Shown here in pieces: positions 18,035 through 55,799 of a DNA stretch of 64,000 bases (its first letter is position 1; each line of letters begins with the position of its first letter). The translations under genes were made by a program, and so were the position numbers. This DNA comes from an uncultured Bacteriovoracaceae bacterium. GTDB taxonomy: Bacteria > Bdellovibrionota > UBA1018. The stretch is from positions 190,428-254,427 of the forward strand of contig CAZLYB010000002.1 of the NCBI GenBank assembly GCA_964563795.1, written 5' to 3'. The notes under the pieces are model-generated. The model saw only the letters and a program-made list of their open reading frames with translations, had not been told where the DNA came from and did not search any database.

Positions 18035-18715
18035 ATGAGTTTTTCGTACAAAAACCTCGCTCTTTTGAGCTTATTGGCAGCGGGCCTCACCGTCACTTCA
18101 GGCTGCGGAAAAGACAGCGACAACAAGAAGAACGACAGTGCAGCGGCTCCGGCCGATCAGGCTTTGGCCGGTGATACTTCAGCCCAAAATGCCGGCTTTG
18201 AAGCGAAACTGAGCTGCAATGTCCAAAAAAATAAAGGACGCCGTGATATCAGCGTCAACGTGGATGGCCTCCTCTGGGTCAGCGCCTCCCCCCAACTCAC
18301 GAATGTGGACTACGAGATCAATAGCCGTCAAGCTGGGCCATTCCATGTGTCTGAGCAAGATGCGCTTTACGTAGGTCAGGCCACGGGATCCGAGATCGGC
18401 CTCGAAGGAGAAGCAGCGAGCCTTAATCTTGATAAATTCGAGATCAAAACTAAAACGGGCACCGCTTATCTGCTCCTTGCAGACCTTCCCTCTGAAGAAC
18501 CTCGCCGCAATTGGAGCCGAGGTAGGTGGATGAGAGGACGACCTGGCAGCACCGCTACGAGAATCACGGCTTACTGGCTAGATGACGCTAGCTCCGTTGC
18601 CGTTCCAGCGAACTGCTCCGTCAGCAAAGCCCCCCGGCAGCGTGATGCTCAGGGCGCCGAGCAGGATCAATCTCTGCAGCTCAATAGCAAGGGCAACCCT
18701 TCGGCGGTTCAATAA
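18035..18715 (+). CDS. hypothetical lipoprotein (paralog 1 of a tandem pair)
   Basis: AAGGAG RBS 9 nt upstream. Lipoprotein signal MSFSYKNLALLSLLAAGLTVTSGC. Low-complexity linker, then a domain bracketed by Cys (LSCN...NCSV). Homologous to the product of 18964..19755. Confidence 0.5.
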   Translation: MSFSYKNLALLSLLAAGLTVTSGCGKDSDNKKNDSAAAPADQALAGDTSAQNAGFEAKLSCNVQKNKGRRDISVNVDGLLWVSASPQLTNVDYEINSRQAGPFHVSEQDALYVGQATGSEIGLEGEAASLNLDKFEIKTKTGTAYLLLADLPSEEPRRNWSRGRWMRGRPGSTATRITAYWLDDASSVAVPANCSVSKAPRQRDAQGAEQDQSLQLNSKGNPSAVQ

Positions 18716-18784: not shown

Positions 18785-18963
18785 CAGGGTCCCGAGGAAT
18801 TATTCCGCGACTTGAAGGGAGTTTGGGACCTTCTTCCCGCGCCTGTCCGTTTCTTCGCTCTCGTTCCCTCTAGCCAGCTTGGTCCCCATCTTGCAGAAGC
18901 TTGATCATTCAACAATCAAACCCCGCGAATGATCGCGCTTCAATCCCGATGGAGGACATGGAT

Positions 18964-19755
18964 ATGTTTTTCCCAAAAAAAAAGAATACGCTGCTTTCCG
19001 CGGCTGCAGCCGTGATGCTGGGAATCGCCGCAGTAGGCTGCAACGATGACAAGGACGACGGAAAAAAAACTACGAGCAATGACCCGACCGCGGCGGCGAA
19101 CCGGCAAGCCGTCACCGGATCCGCTGAGGTGAACGCGGATCCAGGCGCCGCCGTGAGCGGAGATAAGACCGCCTCCGCCGAGAATGCGGCGACTGAACAA
19201 GCCGCCGCCACGGATCCGCAACGGGATCCCGCTCAGAGCGGAGCCGCGATGCCAAGTGATCCCGCTTCCCAAGAGATGGTCGAAGGAGACTACGCCGCAA
19301 ATCTAGTCTGCGAGTGGTCTGGCGATCTTGCGAACAGCGCGGATGCTACTGAAGGCAACGCAAAATCGCGAAAAAAACTGGATCTCCGCCTCAGCGCCAC
19401 AGTGATCAAAGTCCAGGGTCCGCTTCAGCTATTGAACTTGGATTATTTTTTGAAGCGCACGAGTTGGGAGGAAGGAAAGAGGGCTCGCACTTCGTTCTTC
19501 GCGAAGGACCAGTCCGTCGGCTCCATGGCACAGCTTTCGGCCTCTGACCTGGGGATCGGGGACTCAAACGACCCCGCCTATGAAAAATTCGAGCTCAGAA
19601 CACAAGAAGGGCCCGTTTACTTAGCTCTCTCCATCCTTCCAAAAACCCTCAGGCGCTCATCTCAGGGGTTCTTCATTTATTGGATGGAGAGCGAGGATTC
19701 AAAGCCCACTGAGATCGAATGCTCGCTCACTCGCGCGGTAAGAGCGCTGATGTAA
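18964..19755 (+). CDS. hypothetical lipoprotein (paralog 2 of a tandem pair)
   Basis: The ORF-track frame starts at a TTG at 18901. ATG at 18964 is preceded by GGAGGA 7 nt upstream and gives MFFPKKKNTLLSAAAAVMLGIAAVGC, a lipoprotein signal. The C-terminal domain is bracketed by Cys (LVCEW...IECSL) and aligns with paralog 1 (KFELRTQEGPVYLAL vs KFEIKTKTGTAYLLL; FFIYWMESED vs ITAYWLDDAS). Confidence 0.5.
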   Translation: MFFPKKKNTLLSAAAAVMLGIAAVGCNDDKDDGKKTTSNDPTAAANRQAVTGSAEVNADPGAAVSGDKTASAENAATEQAAATDPQRDPAQSGAAMPSDPASQEMVEGDYAANLVCEWSGDLANSADATEGNAKSRKKLDLRLSATVIKVQGPLQLLNLDYFLKRTSWEEGKRARTSFFAKDQSVGSMAQLSASDLGIGDSNDPAYEKFELRTQEGPVYLALSILPKTLRRSSQGFFIYWMESEDSKPTEIECSLTRAVRALM

Positions 19756-21438: not shown

Positions 21439-21733
21439 CGACTTAGTTCGTTGCCATATCAGAGTGATTTGCGTTTTACGATATGTAATTACTGAGAAAA
21501 ACTTATTAAATAAAGCTATTTAGCCGACATAGCTTATGTATGACGTACCGGGTTTTTTTCAAAAAAAAGCTCACTTTCTGTTTTGCGCTAATTTCCATTT
21601 TCACGACCTTTACTGAAGCTAAAGATACGAAAAAAAAACAGGAATCACCTCAGCTAAAAAAATTCAACGGTATCTAGCTTATGATCGGCGTAACTCCATC
21701 GAAAAAGAGCGGATAAAAACCGCGCTTGATCAA

Positions 21734-23269
21734 TTGAAAGTGGGCGAAGTCAAACCGCTTTATTACTTTGAGGTTCCTGAAAATGAGGCGAAAAAATATG
21801 AGTCTGACTTCATTGACGGTGAAACGCTGAATTTCGCGGTTCGTGTGAATCGATCAGGGAAACGATTCATTAGATTTCCGGTGATCCCCCGCGCGGGAAT
21901 GCCGGAAGTAAAGGTAGATGGGGCGAAAAAACCATACACGAAAATCGGCTCTAAAAAATATGCGCTCACTCTTTACGGGGAAGCGGCGTTCGTCACCTCT
22001 CATAACTCCTGGTTAGCTCGGAGCAGTGACAATAAAGAGGTGTTTTTCCTGAAATTGCAGCATTACGACGGGGAAGTCCTCTTTCACGACATAGAAAATG
22101 TCCGACAAACCATCAGCGCAAATGACTATATTGAAAGCGGCTTGAACGAAGCGCGAGAATCCAGGATTTTTTACGCACCTGAGCGATTCGGCGCCGGAAT
22201 TCAAAGTGGCGAGGATTCTCACGCATACAGCATACGATCAGCTAAAGAAATACTTTACGCGGAGGGCTCAATAGAAACATACCCTTTGCATGGAGTTTTA
22301 GCTTCTCCTGATATTCAATATTTTGCTGATCAGTACTCGAAGAATGAAGGGGGGAAAATCACCATTCGGGACTGGATGATCCAGGAGTTTGCCCTAAAAC
22401 TCGGTGAGTTCGCCGCTATCTCACAGATTGAACACGGGATTTGGGGCGTGTTTCACACTCAAAATCTTTTAATCCGAGTTGATCGATCCACTGGGAAAAT
22501 CATCTCTTTCGGGTTTCGAGACGCCAACGATGTGATGATGGATGCCATCGCTAGGATAGAAAAGGGAAGAAAGGTGATTTCTAACGGGGAAAATATTCGG
22601 TGGATCGCTCAACTCAATCAATCTCCCGTCGAAGGCGCTGGATGGGAAACGCCGGAAGCTACTTTCGAATACCTCAGCGATGTGATGAACCAAGCCGCCA
22701 ATCAAACGGACCAACGCGCTTCCCGTCAAATCAGCGCTAGCCGGGAAATGGCGGACGCTTTTTTCAGGGCTTATGAAAATAAAACGAAGCTGATTTTACC
22801 TGCTTTCTCCAAGAATCGACTTAAATTTTCTCCATATAATTCTGATATGTCCCAGGCGTTGAAAGAGGAGTTTTTTCAACTTGAGGGAAAAGCCCTAAAT
22901 CCAAGGGTTGAAATTCAAATTGCCAGCCGATTCAGGTTTCAATCATTTATGGATACACTGACGAAACTCCGCCTCCCGAAGATTGGGAAAAATGACCTCC
23001 TATACTCCCAAGAGCGGCTTCAAAGGATTTTTGATAAAAAAGTCGATGAGACCAAGGTCCACGCTTTCTCCAATGAGGTGATGAAAAATTACGCGAAAGA
23101 TAAATCATTGGGACGGGTAGGCTACGCTTTTGACGGGGAAAAAATTATTTTGTATCAAAAATCAAACTTAAAGCCTTTGGCTTTCGCGTATGATCTTAGC
23201 TCGAAAGAATCTAAAGGAATTACCTCTCGCAAAATCCGCTGCATAGCTTTGAAATTTCATTCCGAGTGA
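21734..23269 (+). CDS. hypothetical protein (511 aa), lower-GC, possible atypical kinase-like fold
   Basis: Long clean ORF preceded by a 295-bp AT-rich intergenic region. No signal peptide. Central segment HGIWGVFHTQNLLIRVDRSTGKIISFGFRDAND loosely resembles the HGDxHxxNxL...xIDF motif of the aminoglycoside/choline-kinase-like superfamily. This is a weak, unverified resemblance. Confidence 0.45.
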   Translation: MKVGEVKPLYYFEVPENEAKKYESDFIDGETLNFAVRVNRSGKRFIRFPVIPRAGMPEVKVDGAKKPYTKIGSKKYALTLYGEAAFVTSHNSWLARSSDNKEVFFLKLQHYDGEVLFHDIENVRQTISANDYIESGLNEARESRIFYAPERFGAGIQSGEDSHAYSIRSAKEILYAEGSIETYPLHGVLASPDIQYFADQYSKNEGGKITIRDWMIQEFALKLGEFAAISQIEHGIWGVFHTQNLLIRVDRSTGKIISFGFRDANDVMMDAIARIEKGRKVISNGENIRWIAQLNQSPVEGAGWETPEATFEYLSDVMNQAANQTDQRASRQISASREMADAFFRAYENKTKLILPAFSKNRLKFSPYNSDMSQALKEEFFQLEGKALNPRVEIQIASRFRFQSFMDTLTKLRLPKIGKNDLLYSQERLQRIFDKKVDETKVHAFSNEVMKNYAKDKSLGRVGYAFDGEKIILYQKSNLKPLAFAYDLSSKESKGITSRKIRCIALKFHSE

Positions 23270-24192
23270 TCATCTTCGGGCTCTTGCACCTTGAATTTCG
23301 GCGGGATTGCCGCCCCAATCCGGTGCTGCCCACGGTTCATTTTCCGTTGTTGAATCCGCGCGAGCTTGACTTCGATGACCGCCGGCGAAGGGTAGTCCTT
23401 GCGCAGCTCCTGATAGAGCTCCAGAGCCGGATCGAGCTGATCCATCTCCTCATAGCAGGATGCGATCCCGAAACGGGCCTCTGAAATCAAGGGGCTCTTG
23501 GGATACTGCTTGATGAAGGCGCGAAAAGCCGCGAGGGCCTGGGCGTAAAGGTCATGAGCGGCGGCTTCGTTCCGGCCCGCGCGCGTCATATGGACCATGC
23601 CGATTTGGTAGGAGGCTTTCTCGGCCCATTCGGTTCCCGAATATTGAGCCATGATTTTTTTGAAGACTTCAATGGATTGGGGGAAGCGGGAAAGGAAGAA
23701 ATGACTCTTCCCCTGGCGATAAAGAAACTCAGGGACCTCAGGGGCCACGGGATTCATCTGGATGAGTTTTTGGTACTGCTGAAGAGCGGCGTCGTAATGC
23801 TCGAGCTTGGAGAAGAGGATTTCACCGATCAGCTTCTGGGCTTGCCATCCCGTTTCGGCGTCCGTGGTCAATTCGGTGTAAGCCCTGAGTTTTCTCAGGC
23901 CCTCGTCGTACTGCGAGAGAAAATACACTTGGGTGGTCGCTGCCCGGTAAAGCGCTTGGAGACCGAGTTTTCCATGGGGATCCTTAGTGATCACTTCCTC
24001 GAATTCGCGCACTGAAGCGAGGTAATTGCCCTCATTCCAGAGTTTCTCGGCGAGAATGTAGCGATTCTTGGCCCGGTTCGAGCTGCAACCCGCGAGGCTC
24101 AGCGCCGCGATCAGGGTCGCCGCTGCGAACTGAGCGCGCTTTAATCCCGAAAAAACCTTATTGGGTCTCGGTCGGGGTGCTGCCACCGCCAC
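23257..24192 (-). CDS. TPR-repeat lipoprotein, BamD/YfiO(YbgF)-like
   Basis: GTG start at 24192. Signal peptide with lipobox LSLAGC. Repeated TPR-like units (YRAATTQVYFLSQYDEG, YQKLIQMNP, FIKQYPKSPLISEARFGIASCYEEM) similar in architecture to BamD. Confidence 0.5.
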   Translation of the reverse strand: MAVAAPRPRPNKVFSGLKRAQFAAATLIAALSLAGCSSNRAKNRYILAEKLWNEGNYLASVREFEEVITKDPHGKLGLQALYRAATTQVYFLSQYDEGLRKLRAYTELTTDAETGWQAQKLIGEILFSKLEHYDAALQQYQKLIQMNPVAPEVPEFLYRQGKSHFFLSRFPQSIEVFKKIMAQYSGTEWAEKASYQIGMVHMTRAGRNEAAAHDLYAQALAAFRAFIKQYPKSPLISEARFGIASCYEEMDQLDPALELYQELRKDYPSPAVIEVKLARIQQRKMNRGQHRIGAAIPPKFKVQEPEDDHSE

Positions 24193-26683
24193 TGCTGCCT
24201 TCAGTCAATTCAATGACTTCCGCGACCGCCATGTACTCGAATGAGACCACTTTCTCGCCGGACGACATCGTCATGAGGCGAACGCCCTGGGTATTTCTCC
24301 CTTGCTCTGAAATTTCCCCGACATGAATTCGGATCATCTGGCCCTTGTTCGAAACGAGCATCACGTCATCCTTGGGGAGGACTTGCTGCGCGCCGAGGAC
24401 CGCTCCGTTCTTGTCGGTGGTCTTCATCGTGATGACTCCCTTGCCGCCTCGGCTTTGAACTCGGTACTCGCTGACCGGGGTTCGCTTCCCATAGCCGCTT
24501 TCCGTCACGGTGAGGAGTTCATATTCTTGATGCCCATTGGAACCCTCTTTGGGATCCAGCACTTCCATCGCGACGACTTGGTCGTCAGGGTCGAGGCTCA
24601 TCCCGATGACGCCGCGGGCGGTGCGGCCCATGGAGCGCACGTCCTGCTCGCTGAAGCGGATGCTCATGCCGTGCTTCGAGCAGATGAAGACGTCGTTATT
24701 GCCCTGGGTGAGTTTCGCGCTGATCAAAACATCACCGTCATCGGTCGAGATCGCGAGGATGCCCGCGTTTCTCACGTTGCTGAAGTCGCTGAGCGGGGTC
24801 TTTTTAATGACGCCTGAGCGCGTGACCATGATGACGTATTCGTTTTCCTTGAACTCCTTGACGGGCAGGATCGCCTTGATCTTCTCCCCGGAATTCAAGG
24901 GCACGAGGTTCACGATGGCCTTGCCTTTGGCGGCGCGGCTGGCCTCCGGGACCTTGTAGACCTTGAGCCAGTAGAGCCGCCCCTGATCGGTGAAGCAGAG
25001 CAGGTAGCTCAGCGTCGTGGTGCGGTAGATGTCGGTGACGAAATCCTCGTCGCCTGTAGTCACCCCGCGGATGCCGCGCCCGCCTCGATGCTGGCTCTTG
25101 AACTGGTTGGGATCCGCACGCTTGATGTAGCCGGTGTGCGTGATCGAGACGAGGGTTTCCTCGTTGGCGATCAGATCCTCGACTTCAAAGTCGGTCGTGA
25201 TGCCTTGGACGATCTGCGTCCGGCGCTCATCGCCGTACTTCTCGCGAATCTCCGTGAGCTCCGTTTTGATGATGCCGTAAACGAGGGCTTCGGACGCTAG
25301 GATCTTCTTCAGCTCTTCGATGAGGGCCAGGATGCGGTGGTATTCCTCGATGATCTTGTCGCGCTCAAGCCCCGTGAGGCGCTGCAGGCGCATATCTAAG
25401 ATGGCTTGAGCCTGGATCTCAGTGAACTGGAATTTTTCCACCAAACCGCTGAGCGCTTGATCCGGCGACGCGGCCGCCTTGATCAGTTGAATGACCGCGT
25501 CGATGTTCTCGACCGCGCGCTTGAGCCCCTCCAAGATGTGCGCCCGGGCTTCGGCTTTCTTGAGGTCGAAGATCGTGCGCCGGACGATCACGTCCTTGCG
25601 GTGCTCGATGAACGCCCAGATGAGGTCGCGCAGGTTGAAGGATTTAGGCTGCCCTTGATGGATCGCAAGCAGGTGAATCCCGTAATTCTCCTGCATCTGG
25701 GTGAGCTTGTAGAGTTGGTTGAGGAGGACGTTGGAATTCTCGCCCTTCTTGATCTCGATCACGACCCGCATGCCTTTGCGGTCCGATTCATCCCGGAGAT
25801 CCGAGATGCCCTCGATCTTCTTGTCGCGCACGAGATCCGCGATCTTCTCGATGAGCTTGGCTTTGTTGACTTGGTAGGGGAGCTCGCTCACGATGATGCG
25901 CTCGCGATCGCTCTTGTAAACTTCGATCTCCGCCTTGGCGCGAATCGTGATGCTCCCACGACCCGTGAGGTACGCGGAGCGCAGCCCCTGATCGCCGAAC
26001 GCGAACCCCGCCGTCGGGAAATCCGGCCCCTGCACGTGCTTCATCAGCGCGAGCGAATCGAGCTCCGGGTGATCGATTAAATCGATCGTCGCGTTGATGA
26101 TCTCGGTCAAATTATGCGGGGGAATATTGGTCGCCATCCCCACCGCGATCCCGGTCGAACCATTGATCAGGAGGTTGGGGATTTTTGCCGGAAGCACTTG
26201 GGGTTCGGTGAGGCTGTCATCGTAGTTGGGAACGAAGCCGACCGTCTCCTTGTCGATGTCGGCCAGGAGCTCGTCGGTGATCTTGGCCATGCGGATTTCG
26301 GTGTAACGCATCGCTGCCGGGGCGTCGCCGTCGATGGAACCGAAGTTCCCTTGCCCATCGACGAGGGGGTAGCGCAGCGTGAAATCCTGCGCCATGCGGA
26401 CGATCGTGTCGTACACCGCGACTTCGCCGTGGGGATGGTATTTACCGATCACATCCCCGGCCACGCGCGCGGATTTTTTATAGGCCTTGTTGTGCGTGTT
26501 GCCCAAGTCGTGCATCGCGTACAGTACGCGCCGGTGCACGGGTTTCAATCCGTCGCGCGCGTCCGGCAGCGCGCGGCCCACGATCACGCTCATCGCGTAA
26601 TCGAGGTAAGCCCCACGCATCTCGTCTTCGATGGTGACTATCGTTAAATTCTTGTCGGGAGTCGTCATTCCGTTTTCAGTCAT
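24158..26683 (-). CDS. gyrA: DNA gyrase subunit A
   Basis: 841-aa protein whose N-terminus contains YAMSVIVGRALPDARDGLKPVHRRVLYAM with the catalytic Tyr region, plus C-terminal beta-pinwheel repeats. Confidence 0.95.
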   Translation of the reverse strand: MTENGMTTPDKNLTIVTIEDEMRGAYLDYAMSVIVGRALPDARDGLKPVHRRVLYAMHDLGNTHNKAYKKSARVAGDVIGKYHPHGEVAVYDTIVRMAQDFTLRYPLVDGQGNFGSIDGDAPAAMRYTEIRMAKITDELLADIDKETVGFVPNYDDSLTEPQVLPAKIPNLLINGSTGIAVGMATNIPPHNLTEIINATIDLIDHPELDSLALMKHVQGPDFPTAGFAFGDQGLRSAYLTGRGSITIRAKAEIEVYKSDRERIIVSELPYQVNKAKLIEKIADLVRDKKIEGISDLRDESDRKGMRVVIEIKKGENSNVLLNQLYKLTQMQENYGIHLLAIHQGQPKSFNLRDLIWAFIEHRKDVIVRRTIFDLKKAEARAHILEGLKRAVENIDAVIQLIKAAASPDQALSGLVEKFQFTEIQAQAILDMRLQRLTGLERDKIIEEYHRILALIEELKKILASEALVYGIIKTELTEIREKYGDERRTQIVQGITTDFEVEDLIANEETLVSITHTGYIKRADPNQFKSQHRGGRGIRGVTTGDEDFVTDIYRTTTLSYLLCFTDQGRLYWLKVYKVPEASRAAKGKAIVNLVPLNSGEKIKAILPVKEFKENEYVIMVTRSGVIKKTPLSDFSNVRNAGILAISTDDGDVLISAKLTQGNNDVFICSKHGMSIRFSEQDVRSMGRTARGVIGMSLDPDDQVVAMEVLDPKEGSNGHQEYELLTVTESGYGKRTPVSEYRVQSRGGKGVITMKTTDKNGAVLGAQQVLPKDDVMLVSNKGQMIRIHVGEISEQGRNTQGVRLMTMSSGEKVVSFEYMAVAEVIELTEGSSGGGSTPTETQ

Positions 26684-26689
26684 AAGCCC

Positions 26690-31342
<4,653 letters not shown>

Positions 31343-33206: not shown

Positions 33207-34259
33207 TCAAGGGCGAGGACGAACCGGTTTCGGTTTGGGTTGCGCTTCATCGGAGTGATAGTCTTCGTAAGTCAATGTGCAGGTGGCGTCCTGATAGGCA
33301 GCATTATTCCGGCCGAGATTTTCCCGCGCGATTTTGAAAGGCCCTCTATAGTTCACTAGATTTACCACCCCTCCTTGCGTGGAGCTGCCGATTCTCTTAA
33401 CGGTTCTCTGCCCATTGTAGCCGTCTGAATAGACGGTGAGGTTGTAAGTCAAGCTGTCGTTGGGAGTGCTGCTGTTTTTGAAGACAGAGTTGACCGTCAT
33501 TTGAGGCCATCGACTTCCCATATCATGGGCGTTGAAATGATAAATCCGATAGGAAGGCGCGGGCGTTTGAGGGTTCAACGTTGGCAGGTAATCCAGGATC
33601 AAATGCTTTTTCGTAGCGCCCAAGCTCACCACCGCTTCTTTCCCAGCTTTGAAATCATTTGAATGACAAACGAGCTCCTTGAGTTTGAAGTGCGGGTCCA
33701 TGAAAGGAAGTGAGTTTGGTTCAAGGCGGGCGGTAGGATCATTTGAGGAAGCGGAAGAGGGAATGTTTTCCTTAATCGTATAATCAATGTCGCAAGTAAG
33801 GAGGAGAGCATCGCGCCCCGTTTGATTGCTCTTGAACTGACCATCACTGCCCATGATGTAGCTATTCGCCAAAACCACGCCCCGGTATTTCAACACGGAT
33901 CCCGGCCGATAACGGATGCGTTCATTATGATTGGACCACTCGGAGTCCGTGAAAAAAGTCAGCGCATAACGATCCTTAGCGTCGGTAAATTTGGAATGAA
34001 TGGTGATGTTTTTTAAATCGCAATCCAAAGCTTGGATAGAGAAATTTACGGGATAAGCTCCTTTTCCATCCTGGAAATTCACCAAAACCGAAGCAGAGTT
34101 TTTTTCAAACGAGGAGGAATGAAACGAAACACCCGAATCTTGGGATTCCATCCCGCACGACATTCTCTCGATCTCGCATACTAATGCGGAGGCATAACTA
34201 TAGGAATGAGTAAACAGAGCAAGAGCCGCAACAGCGGAAGCGTTAAGCGTTTTTTTCAT
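33207..34259 (-). CDS. hypothetical secreted protein (350 aa)
   Basis: Signal peptide MKKTLNASAVAALALFTHSYSYASA. Asn/Ser/Thr-rich, with several Cys. GC lower than flanking DNA. No recognisable motif. Confidence 0.45.
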   Translation of the reverse strand: MKKTLNASAVAALALFTHSYSYASALVCEIERMSCGMESQDSGVSFHSSSFEKNSASVLVNFQDGKGAYPVNFSIQALDCDLKNITIHSKFTDAKDRYALTFFTDSEWSNHNERIRYRPGSVLKYRGVVLANSYIMGSDGQFKSNQTGRDALLLTCDIDYTIKENIPSSASSNDPTARLEPNSLPFMDPHFKLKELVCHSNDFKAGKEAVVSLGATKKHLILDYLPTLNPQTPAPSYRIYHFNAHDMGSRWPQMTVNSVFKNSSTPNDSLTYNLTVYSDGYNGQRTVKRIGSSTQGGVVNLVNYRGPFKIARENLGRNNAAYQDATCTLTYEDYHSDEAQPKPKPVRPRP

Positions 34260-34388
34260 GCGACTTCATTAAACTAAATGAATTCAAAAATCAATTTCAA
34301 TCCAAGCCCCTCGGATAGCGGGAAATGGGGCATTTTTGTACCTCCAGCTACCTTGTTTATTGATAAAAATTAAGTAAGTTGAGGCGTT

Positions 34389-35519
34389 GTGCGCCGTTTT
34401 TTACTCATTTTCTTATCTTTGAGTTTGAGCTCAGGAGGCTTTGCGGCCAACCCATCTTCCTCGCGTCTTTGTTCATCCGCCTTGGTTGCCGTCTCAGATC
34501 GGATCACTGAGAATGCCGCGCGTAAGGCGGAACAGGCTCTTTTAGCGAAGATTCAGGCGGCGAGGCAAGTTGAACTCCCCGTTCCCGCCCCGATTCGGGG
34601 CGCTCAAATGAGCTACTCAGCGAGATTGGCGATGATGAAGTCGATTCCCGCCGATGAGTATCGCCCGTGGATCACGATGATGAGATGGAGTTTAACGCTC
34701 GTTCTTCATCAAAAAAACGGATCCCTCGATTCTTCGATCGCTTGGGTGATCAGTGAGATGGATAAAGCCCTCTCTCAGTCGAACCTCAGTTACTACAACC
34801 TCATGAAGATGATGGAGGGATATGCGATTGCTTTGAGTTTGGACGGCAAGACGGTGGGAGCGACCAAAGTGGAGCTCAAATTAAAAATGCGGGATCACGC
34901 CATTTTGTTCCCGGAGGTCGCAGTCATTCCCACTCGCACATTCTTCGATCCCGATCAGACCGCTGCGCAATCCGCATTGGATGAAGTCGATTACGTGCCC
35001 GTCGATTTCATATGGGAATTTGACGAACCTTCCGGTTACTCCGCCTTTCTGAGGAAAAAACTGGATCGACCTCTCCGTGTTTACGAGTTCTGGGCGGCGA
35101 AGATTCAGCACTCCGAAAAAGCGGTGCCCATTCATTTTTTCATGAGCGCGTTCGAGCGGCACACGAAAAAAGTTTATGAAGACTTGAGGCAGGAGGTCCA
35201 ATCCTCGAATAATTTTTCGGAGAAGCCGGTCGATCACCTTTTAGTGATGAACCTCATTTGGGAAGAGCTCCATTACGGTCGGGAATCACTGTCGCTGACC
35301 AGGGAAGCCGTATTGAGCAAGGAGAAAATAAAAACGATCAATCTCTTGGCGATTGAAGCCAAGCTGAACCGGCTCGGGTACGAGAAAGGAAAAATTAAGT
35401 CCGATCTTTTGAAGATGATTCAAAAGATCGAGGATATTTTCAAATTCAATCCTCTTTTAACTTTGAATGAGCTCAGGGAAAAAATTCACGGTGAGTGGGT
35501 CGCGTCCCGAAAGAATTAA
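34389..35519 (+). CDS. hypothetical secreted protein (376 aa)
   Basis: Signal peptide [20 protein letters not shown]. Lower GC. Divergent from the 33207..34259 gene. No recognisable motif. Confidence 0.45.
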
Positions 35520-40515: not shown

Positions 40516-41205
40516 TTATTGGCTCACCGGGGGGCAATAGCAGTAATTTAGATTTCCCTCGCATTTTTTAGCGCCAGCTTTTTTAAGTAGCGAAACAATG
40601 GTGTTTCCCATGAAATCCCTAACGACAGCGCCGACACTCGCAAGGTCGGCTTCATCGGCGATCGCATCATCGAGGTCAGAATGAGGTGTACGAATTCGGC
40701 AGGAGAACTTATTGAGGTCGATCGTATTTTTTATATTTTTCAGCCTCATTTTTTTTGATGCCTCCAATAGGAGGTTTACCGCCAAAATCGAGTGACGGCT
40801 GATTGCATAGCCCAACGGGGTATTTGGAGGCAGCATCCCTCTTGAAATCCCTTCCCTGAATGAAAGAGTGTTGATCAGTTGGCTGACTTCATCCAAGAGC
40901 ACTCCATTTTCAGCGAGGAACTCGATGAGTTCAGGATGACACTTAATTTCTTTTCCTTGATTAACCCCTAAATGGCATCCGATCGCCGCATAAGCGATGA
41001 GGTTGAGCCCAAAAACCCTGTCATTTGGAAAAAATTCGCCATTTTGAATCATATCCTGCAGCGCTTTTTTATCACCCCGGTCGATTACATTTTTAATATG
41101 GAGAAGAGGATTCTCCTGAGAAAATGCGCTCCATGAATTCGCTGCAAATGCTGCCAAAACCAAGCCACAACACACCGATTTATTTATTAAACTAAAAAAT
41201 TTCAT
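40516..41205 (-). CDS. secreted ankyrin-repeat protein (lower-GC islet)
   Basis: ATG at 41205 with GGAG RBS; the track ORF begins at a GTG at 41220. Signal peptide MKFFSLINKSVCCGLVLAAFAANSWSA. Ankyrin-like units (NTPLGYAISRHSILAVNLLLEASKK; DRVFGLNLIAYAAIGCHLGVNQG). The region is visibly more AT-rich than its neighbours. Confidence 0.5.
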   Translation of the reverse strand: MKFFSLINKSVCCGLVLAAFAANSWSAFSQENPLLHIKNVIDRGDKKALQDMIQNGEFFPNDRVFGLNLIAYAAIGCHLGVNQGKEIKCHPELIEFLAENGVLLDEVSQLINTLSFREGISRGMLPPNTPLGYAISRHSILAVNLLLEASKKMRLKNIKNTIDLNKFSCRIRTPHSDLDDAIADEADLASVGAVVRDFMGNTIVSLLKKAGAKKCEGNLNYCYCPPVSQ

Positions 41206-41243
41206 TTGCTCCGAATACACTAAAATAGTTAATCAGTGAAGCC

Positions 41244-46656: not shown

Positions 46657-47169
46657 TTATTCTCGGCAGTGGATGTTGCCTGAAAGCTCCAACTCACCGA
46701 TGCAATCCAAGTGAACGCGCCCGCCGCTGCATCTCGCATAAGGAGTCACTCTTACCACTTCAACTCTATCTAACACGTAGGATACGAAATTCATTCCATG
46801 CGCAAAACTGCAAACGTCTCTCAGATATTGCTCTGAGGGAAGATGGTGGACGAAACGGGTATTGATGCAGGAATAAAGAAAGGGTTGCACGTTAACAGGC
46901 CCCTCCACATAGCAAGTGCCATAAGTTTGTCCGACGGTAGATTGGATCCGCTCTTGAAAAAGATCCCCAACATACCGATCTGCGCTTACCTTGACGGGTT
47001 GAGTAGGTATTGAAGGCAGTGTTGATGATGTTTGTTGGGTACCACTGATTCGAGCGGGTCCAACGCCTCGAGTGAGGCCATTAACTGCATTGGCTTCGGG
47101 TGTCTGAACCCAGAGCAAAAATCCCATCGTAAATGATCGAACAAGAATTGAGCGTAGAAGATTTTTCAT
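46657..47169 (-). CDS. hypothetical secreted Cys-containing protein (170 aa)
   Basis: Signal peptide MKNLLRSILVRSFTMGFLLWVQTPEANA, with six Cys. Convergent with dnaA, 12 bp between the two stops. No recognisable motif. Confidence 0.4.
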   Translation of the reverse strand: MKNLLRSILVRSFTMGFLLWVQTPEANAVNGLTRGVGPARISGTQQTSSTLPSIPTQPVKVSADRYVGDLFQERIQSTVGQTYGTCYVEGPVNVQPFLYSCINTRFVHHLPSEQYLRDVCSFAHGMNFVSYVLDRVEVVRVTPYARCSGGRVHLDCIGELELSGNIHCRE

Positions 47170-51937: not shown

Positions 51938-53203
51938 CTAAGGCTTCGTAACCTGTCCGTGATCAATTTCCAGAATGACAACCTTGCCCTCCTGAAAATT
52001 TAGCGCGAGACGGTTCCCTGTCCTTGAAAATGCCATATTTTGAAGTGTCATGCGGGATGTGATGGCGTAAGTCCCTATTCTTTCCGTGCGCAGACTGAGC
52101 AACTCAATCTTATTTAAGCTGGTTTTGACAGCGAGAGTGGAACCATCATCTGAGAGGAGGATTTTCTCCACTTCCCCTCGCACTATGCCTCGACCTAGCC
52201 GCCACGGATCTCCGCTCGCAGCATTTGGAAGATAAGTATGAATATGAATTGTAGTTTTGCGGCCCTCTTCAGCAGCAGGCAGAACTTCGGCGATCACCGG
52301 CGCATGCGCAGCCAGGGTGTATAGACCGGATTTAAGCCTTGGACTTGGAGGCTGGCCGGAAAACAAAGTATAATTCAAAGATTTGCTATCTTCATCCCAA
52401 GGAATTTGAATCAAAAAAGGGCCGCCGAATGGGCCATCGGGATGCCGATCCCATTGCCAGAGCCACTTGCGATCTGGACTCAGCCATGGAGTGGAAATGG
52501 GATGAGCGAAAAGCTTCTGATGCTGAATTTCTTGAGTAGCGCCATTAAGGGTATGAATGAATAATTTAGTCTCAGTTTTTGCGAAAAGAGTGGGTGGGAC
52601 GCCGTTATCTGGCGAAGATTGCACCATTGAAAGGCCAAAAACCGCCTCATTCAATTCGATTATCAGGTTTTGTTCGTGAGACGATGCATTCATCGAAGGC
52701 ACCTGAAACCTAAAAAGCCGAGTTTTTCGGCCCTTCTTCATTTCCACAGAAGCAAAAAAACCAAAATCTTCTGGCCTATAGAGGGAGTCATTGGATTCAA
52801 GATGGATGAGGGTTCCATCCAGGTCCGTCTTAAAAACCTCTTGTTCTTTGACTATATCGTAAACGACGAGACGGGTCAGCGTTTGATGACCGGCGATCGC
52901 GATCGTTTTCCAGAGATAAATAAATTTTGAATAGTTCGAGAAACGAACTGCAGTTGGCGCACCGTCATTCAAGAAAGCGGCTGCTAGCGGCCCGGTTCTA
53001 AAATGAGAAGGCAAGTCTAGCGTCACGGTATGAGTGATCAAGAGCGGGGGCAGTGAAGCAGACTTGCAGGGACTGACGGGTGATGAGCTGCTCGCGTTCA
53101 AGGTTGAATGACTGAAAAAAAGGAACGAAATCCCCAGGAGCGCTCCGTGAGCCCACATTTTTAGTGATGTGAATTGCATTCTTGGCTGCCGTTTTCGGCT
53201 CAA
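51938..53203 (-). CDS. hypothetical secreted protein, beta-propeller-like repeats
   Basis: Signal peptide MQFTSLKMWAHGALLGISFLFFSHS. Repeated strand-turn units (SPDRKWLWQWD, SDDGSTLAV, SRTGNRLAL) resembling TolB/WD40-like propeller blades. Inference only. Confidence 0.4.
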   Translation of the reverse strand: MSRKRQPRMQFTSLKMWAHGALLGISFLFFSHSTLNASSSSPVSPCKSASLPPLLITHTVTLDLPSHFRTGPLAAAFLNDGAPTAVRFSNYSKFIYLWKTIAIAGHQTLTRLVVYDIVKEQEVFKTDLDGTLIHLESNDSLYRPEDFGFFASVEMKKGRKTRLFRFQVPSMNASSHEQNLIIELNEAVFGLSMVQSSPDNGVPPTLFAKTETKLFIHTLNGATQEIQHQKLFAHPISTPWLSPDRKWLWQWDRHPDGPFGGPFLIQIPWDEDSKSLNYTLFSGQPPSPRLKSGLYTLAAHAPVIAEVLPAAEEGRKTTIHIHTYLPNAASGDPWRLGRGIVRGEVEKILLSDDGSTLAVKTSLNKIELLSLRTERIGTYAITSRMTLQNMAFSRTGNRLALNFQEGKVVILEIDHGQVTKP

Positions 53204-53274: not shown

Positions 53275-55152
53275 ATGAATTTTGACGTTTTAGTGATTGG
53301 GGGAGGTCATGCGGGCTGCGAAGCGGCTCATGCCGCCGCTCGCCTTGGCTGTTCCACAGCGCTCGCCACTTTGAACCCGGACCGGATTGGATTTCTCTCG
53401 TGCAATCCCGCGATGGGAGGACTTGCGAAAGGTCAGCTCGTCAAAGAAATCGACGCTTTAGGCGGGGTGATGGGAAGGATCACTGACCGCGCGGCGATTC
53501 AATATCGGCGGTTGAATTCAAGTAAGGGGCCAGCGGTTCGGTCTTCACGAGCTCAATGCGACAAAGCCCGCTATTCGAACGAGATGAAATCGTTTTTGAA
53601 ACAGGTTCCTCGCTTGGAATTTTTGCCAGTTGAAATTACTGAGATCTTGGTCGAAGGCGGTAGGGTTGCCGGAGCCATTACTGCAGAAAGGACCCGGATC
53701 GAAGCTAAAACAGTAGTAATTACATCAGGTACTTTTTTGAGAGCAATCATGCACACGGGGTCAGATCAACTCGAGGGAGGAAGATTAGGGGATTCTTCCG
53801 CCAAGGGTTTGAGTCAATCTCTCGAGCGAATGGGTTTTCGGTTGAGACGGCTTAAAACAGGGACTCCGCCTCGACTTCACCGTGAAAGCATTGATTGGAC
53901 GCGCGTTGCCCCTCAAGACGGAGATTTAAATCCTCTCCCTTTTTCATTTTATCACCGACCTCATCCCTTTCCTTATCTCCCCCAGATTCAGTGTTTTATC
54001 ACTTATACGAACGAGCGGACCCATGAGGTGATTGAACAGAACTTTGCTCGCTCCCCTTTGTTTACTGGGATCATTCAGGGAGTTGGACCTCGGTATTGCC
54101 CTTCAATCGAAGACAAAGTGAAGCGTTTTCGCGACAAGACGCGTCATCAGCTTTTTTTAGAGCCAGAGGGATTGGAAACTCCAGAGATCTACGTAAATGG
54201 AATTTCAACGAGCCTCCCGCGTGATGTTCAAGACGCATTTGTGCGCACCATCGAGGGGCTGGAAAACGCTGTTTTTATGAAGCACGGGTATGCCGTGGAG
54301 TATGACAGCGTTGATGCACGGCAATTGAAGCGCACTTTGGAATCAAAAGAAATCCCTGGTTTATTTTTCGCGGGCCAAGTCAACGGAACTTCGGGCTACG
54401 AAGAAGCTGGTGCCCAAGGGTTGATGGCTGGGATTAACGCCGCTCTTGTTGTTCAAGAGCGTGATTCTTTTACTTTAGGAAGACATGAAGGGTACATCGG
54501 CGTTCTAGTGGATGACCTCGTTTTAAACGGAGTGGATGAGCCCTATCGTATGTTCACTTCGCGCGCTGAGTATCGGCTTTTGCTCCGTGAAGATAACGCA
54601 GATCTTCGCCTCGGTGAAAAAGCGGGAAAACTAGGGCTTTTGTCGCCCTTAGAACAAGAGCGGTTGCAGTTTAAAGCACAAGCGATTCAAGAAGAGCGAG
54701 AGCGACTGGAGTCCACTTTCTTTTTCCCCGTTCAAACCGCCGAATACTTTGAGTCGCGGCAGTGGCCCCTCCTGAAAGATCGAATTTCTGCTTCGACGCT
54801 CTTAAGACGTCCTGAGGTAGGATGGGCAGAATTAGAAGCACTGGGTCTGAAGAGATTTGAGGGGAGTGATTCAAAAGAACTTGCCTTTGAAATCAAGGAG
54901 CAAGTTGAGATCCAAATCAAGTATGAGGGGTATATCAAGAGGGATCTCGAGCTCCTTAAAACCGTAAACCAGTATGAAAACTTAGAAATCCCTCACGACA
55001 TTGATTATGGGGTGATCCCAGGACTTTCAAATGAAATAAAGGGAAGGCTTTCGGATACAAAACCTGAAACCCTTGGGCAAGCAAAGCGAGTCCCAGGAGT
55101 TACGCCAGCCGCAGTAGCGAATCTCATGATTTTTCTCAAGATGTCAGCATGA
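53275..55152 (+). CDS. mnmG: tRNA uridine 5-carboxymethylaminomethyl modification enzyme MnmG (GidA)
   Basis: 625-aa protein with the FAD-binding N-terminus FDVLVIGGGHAGCEAA and conserved GidA core (NPAMGG, GPRYCPSIEDK), plus the C-terminal MnmE-interaction domain. Confidence 0.95.
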   Translation: MNFDVLVIGGGHAGCEAAHAAARLGCSTALATLNPDRIGFLSCNPAMGGLAKGQLVKEIDALGGVMGRITDRAAIQYRRLNSSKGPAVRSSRAQCDKARYSNEMKSFLKQVPRLEFLPVEITEILVEGGRVAGAITAERTRIEAKTVVITSGTFLRAIMHTGSDQLEGGRLGDSSAKGLSQSLERMGFRLRRLKTGTPPRLHRESIDWTRVAPQDGDLNPLPFSFYHRPHPFPYLPQIQCFITYTNERTHEVIEQNFARSPLFTGIIQGVGPRYCPSIEDKVKRFRDKTRHQLFLEPEGLETPEIYVNGISTSLPRDVQDAFVRTIEGLENAVFMKHGYAVEYDSVDARQLKRTLESKEIPGLFFAGQVNGTSGYEEAGAQGLMAGINAALVVQERDSFTLGRHEGYIGVLVDDLVLNGVDEPYRMFTSRAEYRLLLREDNADLRLGEKAGKLGLLSPLEQERLQFKAQAIQEERERLESTFFFPVQTAEYFESRQWPLLKDRISASTLLRRPEVGWAELEALGLKRFEGSDSKELAFEIKEQVEIQIKYEGYIKRDLELLKTVNQYENLEIPHDIDYGVIPGLSNEIKGRLSDTKPETLGQAKRVPGVTPAAVANLMIFLKMSA

Positions 55153-55799
55153 ACCTCTTAGACCAAGAACTTAAAGCGGTTGGAATCGAGCTTTCAAGCG
55201 AAGCTGAGCAGAAACTCACGCGTTTTTATGAACTCCTTAAGGAAGAGAATAAAAAACAAAACCTCACTCGCTTAATCGAGCCCAGAGATTTTATAGAAGG
55301 GCATGTTTACGACGCTTGGAAGCTGCATCACTCTGGATTTCTCCATTCTCCTTCACTTGATTTAGGAAGTGGGGCAGGGAGTCCTGGCCTGATCTGCGCA
55401 CTCTTTAATCCCCAGCATCAGTGGGTGCTTACTGATTCAGAAAAAAGAAAGGCTGCTTTTTTAATCCAGGCTCAGAAGCAGCTCCAACTCGAGAATTGCC
55501 AAGTATTCGCAGATCGTGCAGAGAGGCTTCTTAAAAGCAAACCCGTTCCCTGTATTACGGTGCGTGCAGTAGGAACAGTTTCTAAAATTTTTGCGCTTCT
55601 GAGCACATGTTCTACGTGGAACACACTCCTTTTACTCAAAGGCCCTCGATGGCAAGAAGAATGGACTGAATTTCAGGGCGGCTCCTTTCGTTCGCAATTA
55701 AAAATCGAGGCCGTTCAAAACTACGAAGTAGGAATTGAAAGAAAAAAACGACTACTCATCAACCTAAAAAGAGTTCCACGTGGAACAAAAAGGGAATGA
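55149..55799 (+). CDS. rsmG: 16S rRNA (guanine527-N7)-methyltransferase RsmG (GidB)
   Basis: 216-aa protein with SAM motif LDLGSGAGSPGL. 4-nt overlap with mnmG, the classic gidA-gidB pair. Confidence 0.85.
   Translation: MNLLDQELKAVGIELSSEAEQKLTRFYELLKEENKKQNLTRLIEPRDFIEGHVYDAWKLHHSGFLHSPSLDLGSGAGSPGLICALFNPQHQWVLTDSEKRKAAFLIQAQKQLQLENCQVFADRAERLLKSKPVPCITVRAVGTVSKIFALLSTCSTWNTLLLLKGPRWQEEWTEFQGGSFRSQLKIEAVQNYEVGIERKKRLLINLKRVPRGTKRE
55608..55623. promoter_or_regulatory. parS-like palindrome (3 mismatches to TGTTTCACGTGAAACA)
   Basis: tgttctacgtggaaca inside the 3' half of rsmG; shares the core with the stronger site at 55772. Confidence 0.35.
55772..55787. promoter_or_regulatory. parS-like perfect 14-bp palindrome GTTCCACGTGGAAC
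   Basis: agttccacgtggaaca is a perfect inverted repeat around CACGTG and has a 13/16 match to the universal parS consensus. It lies in the last codons of rsmG, about 200 bp upstream of parA, a typical parS location. Confidence 0.5.

Follow-up and report, generated by a model that had tools for sequence, protein, structure and literature searches.

The locus and its reading frames

The DNA considered here is a stretch of 64,000 nucleotides (the window) from an uncultured Bacteriovoracaceae bacterium of the phylum Bdellovibrionota. Between its positions 21439 and 23269, the original prediction placed an AT-rich leader followed by an open reading frame (ORF) for 511 amino acids, suspected of encoding a horizontally acquired, kinase-like enzyme. 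The pieces from which that prediction was assembled are all present: the ORF (21734-23269), the AT-rich stretch ahead of it, the homopolymers within that stretch, and a mini-ORF encoding 45 amino acids. The flanks are also as it had them. One side carries, on the minus strand, a block of AtpZ-like, atpI-like, atpB and atpE genes; the other carries a gene for a tetratricopeptide repeat (TPR) lipoprotein with a weak match to YfiO/BamD, and then gyrA, fabH and gyrB. The 295-bp stretch 21439-21733 has a guanine-plus-cytosine (GC) fraction of 0.359 and holds T7 at 21553, A8 at 21561, A9 at 21630 and A7 at 21656. Four such runs in about 110 nucleotides were reached in none of 20,000 mononucleotide shuffles.

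These pieces do not, however, make a leader plus an orphan ORF. They make one gene. The mini-ORF that begins at ATG 21540 is the true N-terminus of a member of a protein family, and the main frame supplies the rest. The main frame is open from 21623 (548 codons), its first start codon being the TTG at 21734; the database gene call (P0001) is a 456-residue fragment that begins at an internal ATG. Adding one A to either the A7 run (21656-62) or the A9 run (21630-38) fuses the two frames to give a protein of 576 amino acids. Without that change, the upstream frame yields the 45-codon product alone.

That the 576-residue form is the real gene follows from three facts taken together: where the homologues begin to align, what the homologues carry ahead of that point, and how the family profile matches. 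Alignments to homologues begin at residues 14-17 of the 548-residue extension, directly 3' of the A7 run, and this point corresponds to residues 33-48 of the homologues themselves. The 32-47 residues that precede it in the homologues are, by a hydrophobicity heuristic, signal peptides. The hydrophobic window sought by this heuristic is found in 55 of the 59 homologues that are complete at their N-termini, versus 10 of 495 internal control segments (2%).

The upstream frame of the window offers the same thing. It reads MTYRVFFKKK-LTFCFALISIFTTF-TEA|K, where a basic n-region, an h-region within the usual 10-15 residues and small residues at -3 and -1 are those expected of a predicted type I signal peptide; no lipobox is seen. 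This peptide passes the same hydrophobicity test (Kyte-Doolittle value 2.5). Thus, the earlier statement that the protein lacks a signal peptide is contradicted both by the mini-ORF, which encodes a predicted one, and by the complete homologues.

The profile hidden Markov model (HMM) of the family agrees. Against the repaired 576 residues it aligns from positions 5 to 534, essentially end to end, with 402 bits. The 511-residue ORF enters only at HMM position 56 (386 bits) and the 456-residue database call only at position 106 (341 bits); the main-frame body scores 397 bits.

Because the mini-ORF encodes the signal peptide, the true intergenic spacer is only 21439-21539. The 295-bp region is therefore AT-rich, as first described, but it is not all intergenic, since the gene's own 5' portion occupies 21540-21733, separated from the remainder by a frame change of one nucleotide. 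A consensus scan found no sigma-70-like promoter in the spacer. Promoter-like and terminator-like matches occur only inside the ORF, in numbers no higher than chance, and the leader has no match in Rfam.

There is a lesson for annotation here. The models that start at ATG (456 residues) and at TTG (511 residues) both miss the signal peptide through a one-base homopolymer problem, and this is why a family member looked like a cytoplasmic orphan with an "AT-rich leader." The features of the locus are collected in Table 1.

Table 1. Features of the locus, in coordinates of the window. NIS, nonribosomal-peptide-synthetase-independent siderophore.
Feature	Position	Strand	Remarks
Start of atpZ-like gene	21438	-	Borders the spacer 21439..21539
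Intergenic region proper, 101 bp, GC 0.33	21439..21539	.	Separates the divergent atpZ-like gene from the true start codon of the family gene
Mini-ORF, zero-frame, 45 codons: signal peptide plus KDTKKKQESPQLKKFNGI	21540..21677	+	Stop codon TAG at 21675-77
Predicted signal peptide MTYRVFFKKKLTFCFALISIFTTFTEA	21540..21620	+	Mini-ORF frame; KKK n-region, 14-residue hydrophobic core, T-E-A cleavage-type end
A9 run	21630..21638	+	One added A, in the DNA or in the mRNA through RNA-polymerase slippage, would carry the signal-peptide frame into the main one (...KDTKKKTGITSAKKIQRYLAYD...), 576 residues
A7 run	21656..21662	+	A_AAA_AAA in the signal-peptide register; A8 would give ...QESPQLKKIQRYLAYD..., 576 residues
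Main reading frame, 535 codons plus stop	21662..23269	+	NIS-synthetase-like / kinase-like body
ORF of 511 residues	21734..23269	+	TTG start
Predicted phosphate-binding strand-loop-strand with S113-H114-N115-S116 and K131	21998..22054	+	Alignment to NIS enzymes, column conservation
Segment with E174 and R192	22181..22237	+	Alignment to NIS enzymes, column conservation
Predicted catalytic core H265-T-Q267-N268 ... R286-D287-x-x-D290 ... D294, segment HGIWGVFHTQNLLIRVDRSTGKIISFGFRDAND	22454..22543	+	
C-terminal tail CIALKFHSE plus stop	23240..23269	+	
Stop and derived 21-residue C-terminal tail RIGAAIPPKFKVQEPEDDHSE of the TPR lipoprotein gene	23257..23322	-	

A family of exported proteins in Bdellovibrionota

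A word-indexed homology search returned only the protein itself, and searches of the window protein against Pfam, NCBIfam, PHROGs, PADLOC and the sequences of the PDB gave no genuine match. A match to MutS_IV (24.7 bits, residues 13-61) was set aside as spurious, as it covers a short helix rich in Lys and Glu. An exhaustive HMMER scan of 1.84 billion representative sequences did better. It delivered 82 relatives at E<1e-3, 39 of them below 1e-10, with identities of 25-34% and lengths mostly of 500-610 residues. The gene is therefore no orphan, and the original description of a protein of no obvious family does not hold. From these, a family alignment (A1) of 71 sequences was built, whose members overall are only about 15-25% identical to each other.

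The taxonomic range was examined with a degenerate DNA pattern made by hand, encoding H-T-Q-N, eight residues, T-G, seven residues, and R-D. Over 185,579 species genomes this pattern found 31 loci, of which the family HMM confirmed 15. Every one of the 15 lies in Bdellovibrionota, including Bdellovibrio, Pseudobdellovibrio, Bacteriovoracaceae, Bdellovibrionia and others. The 16 matches in other phyla are chance matches that the HMM did not confirm. Named family members are annotated solely as "hypothetical protein." This is, then, an uncharacterised family of exported proteins, found here in Bdellovibrionota only. The TPR protein next to the window gene also has its closest relatives in this phylum, of which the window represents a deep-branching member.

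A single Cys lies 5-15 residues from the C-terminus in 61 of the 71 members. The residues after it form a short tail, hydrophobic or amphipathic; in the window, Cys and tail together lie at 23240-23266. Such a tail could be a signal for sorting or anchoring, or could form a disulfide.

The fold and its nearest relatives

An AlphaFold2 model built from the 71-sequence alignment has a mean predicted local distance difference test (pLDDT) score of 88.2 and a predicted template modelling (pTM) score of 0.90. Compared with the PDB by Foldseek, the model returns NIS synthetases in all of its top 50 positions, with probability 1.00, E-values down to 9e-9 and 380-470 aligned columns. Those matched are SbnC, IucA, IucC, DesD, AcsD, AsbB, AlcC, DfoC and NcdF. 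The features of a protein-kinase-like fold are also seen in the model: two lobes, a Lys on a strand, an Asn in the catalytic loop, and a Mg-binding Asp after a strand pair.

Sequence profiles point in the same direction. The two best sequence matches of the family profile in the PDB are AsbB and SbnC, with alignments that run over K131, E174, R192, HxQN and RD; comparison by hhalign with five NIS enzymes (IucA, IucC, AsbB and two others) gives an E-value of 1.3e-6. Among the 71 members, 43 match the Pfam FhuF family (PF06276) weakly (E<0.1, best 1.2e-6), and one matches IucA_IucC (PF04183; E 4e-5). The window protein itself has no match to the first, and none to the second at E<10.

As modelled, the body is a divergent NIS (IucA/IucC) fold without a thumb, having a protein-kinase-like core that would bind nucleotide. 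No other proteins come nearly so close to it as the adenylating NIS ligases. The three-domain arrangement of thumb, fingers and palm described for NIS synthetases (PMC9356276) is not found in it, and the family adds an N-terminal segment and a C-terminal alpha/beta subdomain of its own.

The NIS systems used for comparison were AcsD (3FFE), SbnC (7CBB), AsbB (3TO3), NcdF (9NOM), IucC (6CN7), IucA (5JM7) and DesD. Unlike these, the window protein carries a predicted Sec signal peptide; its identity to them is 10-14%, it scores below the Pfam thresholds, no siderophore genes surround it, and its family was found here only in Bdellovibrionota. All characterised NIS enzymes are, to our knowledge, cytoplasmic. 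No exported NIS-like family was described in the literature searched. The protein is best classed as a new variant of the NIS fold, exported and without a thumb.

Two other comparisons are useful. Protein-kinase folds that do not simply phosphorylate are known. SelO (6EAC) and the SidJ-type glutamylases are among the enzymes that use one, with ATP, for AMP transfer or acyl-adenylate chemistry. SelO differs from the present family in having no detectable sequence similarity to it, other catalytic-loop motifs, and no export by a Sec signal. The FhuF-like domain PF06276 is, in NIS enzymes, their C-terminal half, and it holds the H-x-Q-N...D region. FhuF itself carries a 2Fe-2S Cys motif, a C-terminal cluster of Cys residues. 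That cluster is absent from the family, where just one C-terminal Cys is conserved.

The predicted nucleotide site

In NIS synthetases, the invariant ligands of the ATP phosphates, numbered as in DesD, are S275, R277, K291, R303, R370, H440, E/Q442, N443 and D460 (PMC9356276). Conserved columns of the family map onto K291, R370, H440, E442, N443, D460 and E463 of DesD. Thus, K131 (70 of 71 sequences) aligns with the ATP-binding Lys; R192 (71/71) aligns with the arginine of the "iwRE" motif, the gamma-phosphate contact R370; and H265-x-Q267-N268...D287...D290 corresponds to H440-x-E/Q442-N443...D460...E463, the ligands of the alpha-phosphate and Mg2+. Q267, N268 and D287 are found in every one of the 71 sequences, H265 in 70 and E174 in 68, and D290 is also among the invariant or nearly invariant columns. 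S113-H114-N115-S116 is the family's version of the NIS S-x-R-T motif, with S or G in the column of S113 and H, K or R at position 114 in 59 of the 71. Every conserved residue of the site is present in the window copy.

From this alignment, the NIS site for nucleotide and Mg2+ appears to be kept as Lys131, Arg192, His265-x-Gln267-Asn268, Asp287 and Asp290. In the NIS enzymes this set of ligands holds Mg-ATP so that a carboxylate can attack its alpha-phosphate (PMC9356276). Retention of the set therefore makes adenylation followed by ligation, or transfer of AMP, likelier than phosphorylation.

Ankyrin-repeat neighbours in related loci

In eight of the 15 related loci (L004, L011, L012, L014, L019, L022, L025 and L026; for example, L014:1350-4412 and L019:999-7006), the family gene abuts or overlaps one to three genes on the same strand that encode ankyrin-repeat proteins of 800-1045 amino acids. 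These neighbours have a signal peptide, an N-terminal part of about 700 residues without known domain, and ankyrin repeats at the C-terminus. The remaining loci have unrelated neighbour genes.

An ankyrin protein of Bdellovibrio is known to protect the predator from endopeptidases that it secretes itself; this is Bd3460, a small ankyrin protein that inhibits DD-endopeptidases (PMC4686830). As in the Bd3460 pairs, an exported enzyme would here be encoded beside an ankyrin-repeat protein. This is an analogy of context, of course, and not evidence. The neighbours also differ from Bd3460 in their size and in their large N-terminal part, and the window has no such neighbour.

Three smaller observations belong to these loci. 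Up to three tandem copies of the ankyrin-protein gene stand in L019. The ankyrin part matches PDC-M72A, a candidate-defence model of PADLOC (E 2.8e-54). A gene for a HipA-type toxin kinase lies near the family gene in two of the 15 loci (L003:1604-2923 and L026:79-1392), probably by coincidence.

What the protein may do

From its ATG at 21540 the gene encodes first a predicted Sec-type signal peptide and then a Lys-rich linker, in which the A9 and A7 runs lie. A frame change of one nucleotide leads from there into the main frame of 535 codons, ending at 23269, and the repaired product has 576 residues. We propose that, outside the cytoplasm of its producer, either in the producer's own envelope or in its prey, this product would bind Mg-ATP in the manner of the NIS enzymes and activate a carboxylate, or transfer AMP, at the alpha-phosphate. 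It would then be an adenylating ligase or an AMP-transferase, and would not transfer the gamma-phosphate. The giant ankyrin proteins could be partners of such an enzyme, could target it, or could protect the producer from it.

An exported, ATP-dependent adenylating enzyme is the likely identity. Action in the envelope or in prey, rather than in the synthesis of siderophores, is preferred because of the export signals, the lack of iron-related neighbours and the finding of the family, in these searches, only in the phylum of the Bdellovibrio-like predators; the ankyrin-protein neighbours in eight of the 15 relatives also speak for a site outside the cytoplasm. We regard the account as a whole as moderately probable. 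Considerably greater confidence attaches to each of the gene structure, the family, the fold and the insertion (discussed below), and considerably less to the chemistry and to the site of action, which are inferred, as are the class of substrate and the expression of the window copy.

Other readings of the same protein must be weighed. The original prediction leaned toward a phosphotransferase like the aminoglycoside phosphotransferases (APH) and choline kinases, which would deliver a gamma-phosphate to a hydroxyl with the help of an H-x-D...N loop and a DFG-like Asp. Its recognition of a kinase-like catalytic segment was sound as to fold. The segment HGIWGVFHTQNLLIRVDRSTGKIISFGFRDAND holds Q267, N268, D287, H265 and D290, and the flagged residues occupy, in the AlphaFold model, the places of the catalytic loop and the Mg-binding Asp of kinase-like folds. 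Two members of the Lys/Glu/Asp triad of kinases are also there, as K131 and D287; the helix Glu, E158, is found in just 43 of the 71 sequences. The assignment to the APH/choline-kinase family did not survive, as the motif is that of the NIS enzymes. NIS synthetases score about twice as high, aligning over some 340 residues; the catalytic Asp of the Brenner motif H-x-D-x4-N is absent from what is here H-T-Q-N, the column five before N268 being E, A, V or Q; no APH or choline-kinase family of Pfam matches at E<10; and the only sequence-level links of the family are to IucA/IucC and FhuF. The window protein is also about twice as long as these kinases, and NIS enzymes are closer to it in both structure and sequence. 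A phosphotransferase of this type is therefore very improbable. Still harder to credit is a genuine NIS siderophore synthetase that works in the cytoplasm to condense citrate, alpha-ketoglutarate or a succinyl-hydroxamate with an amine or an alcohol. The best structural and sequence matches (AcsD, SbnC, AsbB, IucA/IucC, DesD) and the conserved Mg-ATP ligands would suit it. Such a synthetase would not, however, be expected to have a signal peptide, which the window protein and nearly all homologues have, nor to lack the thumb domain and GHPxHP region, nor to leave two NIS-invariant arginines unconserved, nor to fall below the Pfam threshold for IucA_IucC. Further, neither the window nor any of the 15 related loci has neighbours for siderophore biosynthesis or export, or for a TonB receptor.

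The protein might also be exported and yet catalyse nothing, serving as a binding protein or pseudoenzyme that offers a scaffold to a ferric siderophore, to some other ligand or to an ankyrin partner, without turnover of ATP. A periplasm that contains no ATP speaks for this, as do the loss of two NIS arginines and of the thumb, and the fact that the commonest Pfam match among members is to a FhuF-type domain. Against it, K131, R192, H265, Q267, N268, D287 and D290 are invariant or nearly so over 71 divergent sequences, a pattern typical of active enzymes, and the 2Fe-2S Cys motif of FhuF is absent. We consider such a role quite improbable.

The account of an exported adenylating enzyme is itself opposed by several facts. 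Neither the periplasm nor the space outside the cell normally offers ATP, and an exported enzyme of this kind therefore needs a special setting, such as the prey cytoplasm or the bdelloplast; the predatory habit of the window lineage is putative only. The NIS thumb domain (some 130 residues, with the GHPxHP region and the His that stacks on adenine) has no counterpart in the protein. The position of the S-x-R-T arginine (R277) is S, N or A in the family, although the adjacent column is the basic one noted above, and the ATP-loop arginine (R303) falls in a six-residue deletion, in a region where the alignment is of low confidence. The hhalign probability is only 82%, with low confidence per column outside the core. 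The window protein matches no family of Pfam, NCBIfam or PADLOC, its signal peptide and those of its relatives were judged by the hydrophobicity heuristic only, the ankyrin partner gene is absent from the window, and the copy in the window is, as assembled, out of frame. The missing arginines and the loss of the thumb may leave room for another pose of the nucleotide, or for a non-catalytic role.

If an exported, thumb-less family does use the NIS nucleotide site with no iron context, the chemistry known for this fold would reach into another cellular compartment. Little is known of the enzymes that Bdellovibrio-like predators secrete, and the family would be a candidate class among them. A more ambitious version holds that Bdellovibrio-like bacteria export a new class of effectors, derived from the siderophore-synthetase fold and directed at prey or envelope, that form acyl-adenylates or transfer AMP and are partnered or held in check by the giant ankyrin proteins. 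The newly acquired window copy would then be expressed solely through RNA-polymerase slippage on its A9 and A7 runs, and so be switched on and off at random (phase-variable); this must be called distinctly unlikely.

The nature of the frame change

Three readings of the frame change remain: an error of the assembly in a homopolymer, a very recent inactivating mutation, or a genuinely out-of-frame template that is partly rescued by slippage of RNA polymerase. Decay of long standing is excluded, as the 548-codon frame is uninterrupted and retains every residue that is invariant in the family. Programmed -1 ribosomal frameshifting was also rejected. The A7 run does present A_AAA_AAA in the proper register, but there is neither a stimulatory structure nor conservation; the RNA downstream of A7 folds no better than its shuffles (z = 0.18), and homologues are single ORFs, none of which has A9 or an equivalent tract at the same position. 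Exact-sequence look-ups gave no independent assembly of the locus in which A7 might be compared with A8. A window-wide test that added or removed one base at each homopolymer did not discriminate, because most of the gains fell at gene junctions.

The second of these readings makes the window copy a recently inactivated pseudogene. Here, the A7 or A9 tract would truly be one base short, and the locus would make a 45-residue peptide or a truncated cytoplasmic fragment, neither of which functions. This concerns the state of the window copy, of course, and not the nature of the family. The assembled frames do not join, the database call is a 456-residue fragment from an internal ATG, no RNA structure stimulates ribosomal frameshifting, and no homologue has an A9 tract at this position; each of these would fit a pseudogene. 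The intact frame and its invariant residues mean, however, that inactivation, if there was any, was very recent. Further, on a run of nine A or nine T the slippage of bacterial RNA polymerase is highly efficient in vivo (PMC5009743), and an A9 template, even one that is out of frame, should therefore give some full-length product. The homopolymer length may also be an assembly error, no independent assembly having been found. We consider a pseudogene unlikely.

Frameshifts are not rare in these metagenome-assembled genomes. The family gene of Bdellovibrionales RBG_16_40_8 (L011:2338-4123, minus strand) is likewise split, into two overlapping ORFs, and both gyrA and gyrB are in pieces in L037:2651-7001, an indication of an error-prone assembly.

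Insertion at a conserved junction

The original prediction took low GC as a sign of acquisition. The ORF is indeed lower in GC than its neighbours, with a GC fraction of 0.448 and a GC at third codon positions (GC3) of 0.475, versus a GC3 of 0.68-0.80 in the neighbours and a window mean of 0.636 +/- 0.104. In the genomes of the homologues (GC 35-56%), the GC of the gene is within 0.04 of that of its locus; the gene in the window is 0.10 lower. Core genes of the window are, however, equally poor in GC, such as mnmG/gidA (GC3 0.46), rsmG (0.39) and recF (0.53). This makes GC alone weak evidence for acquisition.

Gene order provides better evidence. Four relatives with long contigs share a co-directional backbone, recF-gyrB-fabH-gyrA-TPR-(atpZ/atpI)-atpB-atpE ... 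uvrA. In these four, 15-314 bp with no gene in them separate the TPR gene from the atp block, and no homologue of the family is found at their syntenic loci. It is exactly this junction that the family gene occupies in the window, where it is encoded by the opposite strand. The TPR gene, whose closest named relatives are from "Bdellovibrionota bacterium" and "Oligoflexia bacterium" (46-54% identity), has lost its ancestral stop codon there. In six relatives the protein ends ...KLARIRERKAQRS[H/R]; in the window it runs 21 residues further. The added tail, RIGAAIPPKFKVQEPEDDHSE, shares 13 bp with the 3' end of the family gene, and HSE is the C-terminus of each of the two proteins. This tail marks the right-hand edge of the rearrangement.

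The empty junction of the relatives, the tail of the TPR protein and the GC gap together mean that the gene is a lineage-specific insertion at the TPR-atpZ junction. Horizontal acquisition, as first suspected, is thus upheld by synteny (absence from four relatives and a derived TPR tail) and not by GC. In mechanistic terms, the gene would have entered this genome inverted, at a junction otherwise conserved, and plausibly came from a member of the phylum with lower GC. No flanking direct or inverted repeats, and no mobility genes, were found at the ends of the insertion.

Other observations in the window

The GC of the window is very uneven. Regions of low GC that contain core genes lie at 53275-55799 and 30110-31342. 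There are also five further ORFs of low GC that have no Pfam family; the low-GC regions listed include 40516-41220, 46657-47169, 51938-53203 and 33207-35519.

With respect to the backbone, fabH stands between gyrB and gyrA, and recF upstream of gyrB, both in the window (24158-30144) and in all four relatives (L036-L039). The order recF/gyrB/fabH/gyrA is conserved in this lineage of Bdellovibrionota.

Finally, two ORFs on the plus strand (18035-18715 and 18901-19755) encode paralogous lipoprotein-like products that are 25% identical (E 3e-10), belong to no Pfam family, and both have a C-terminal motif containing Cys, CS[VL][ST][KR]A.R. These paralogues occupy the slot between atpE and uvrA, where the four relatives differ, having genes for PIN, TRL, a transposase, a metallophosphatase or cytochrome bd. 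That slot looks like a local hot spot of gene turnover.

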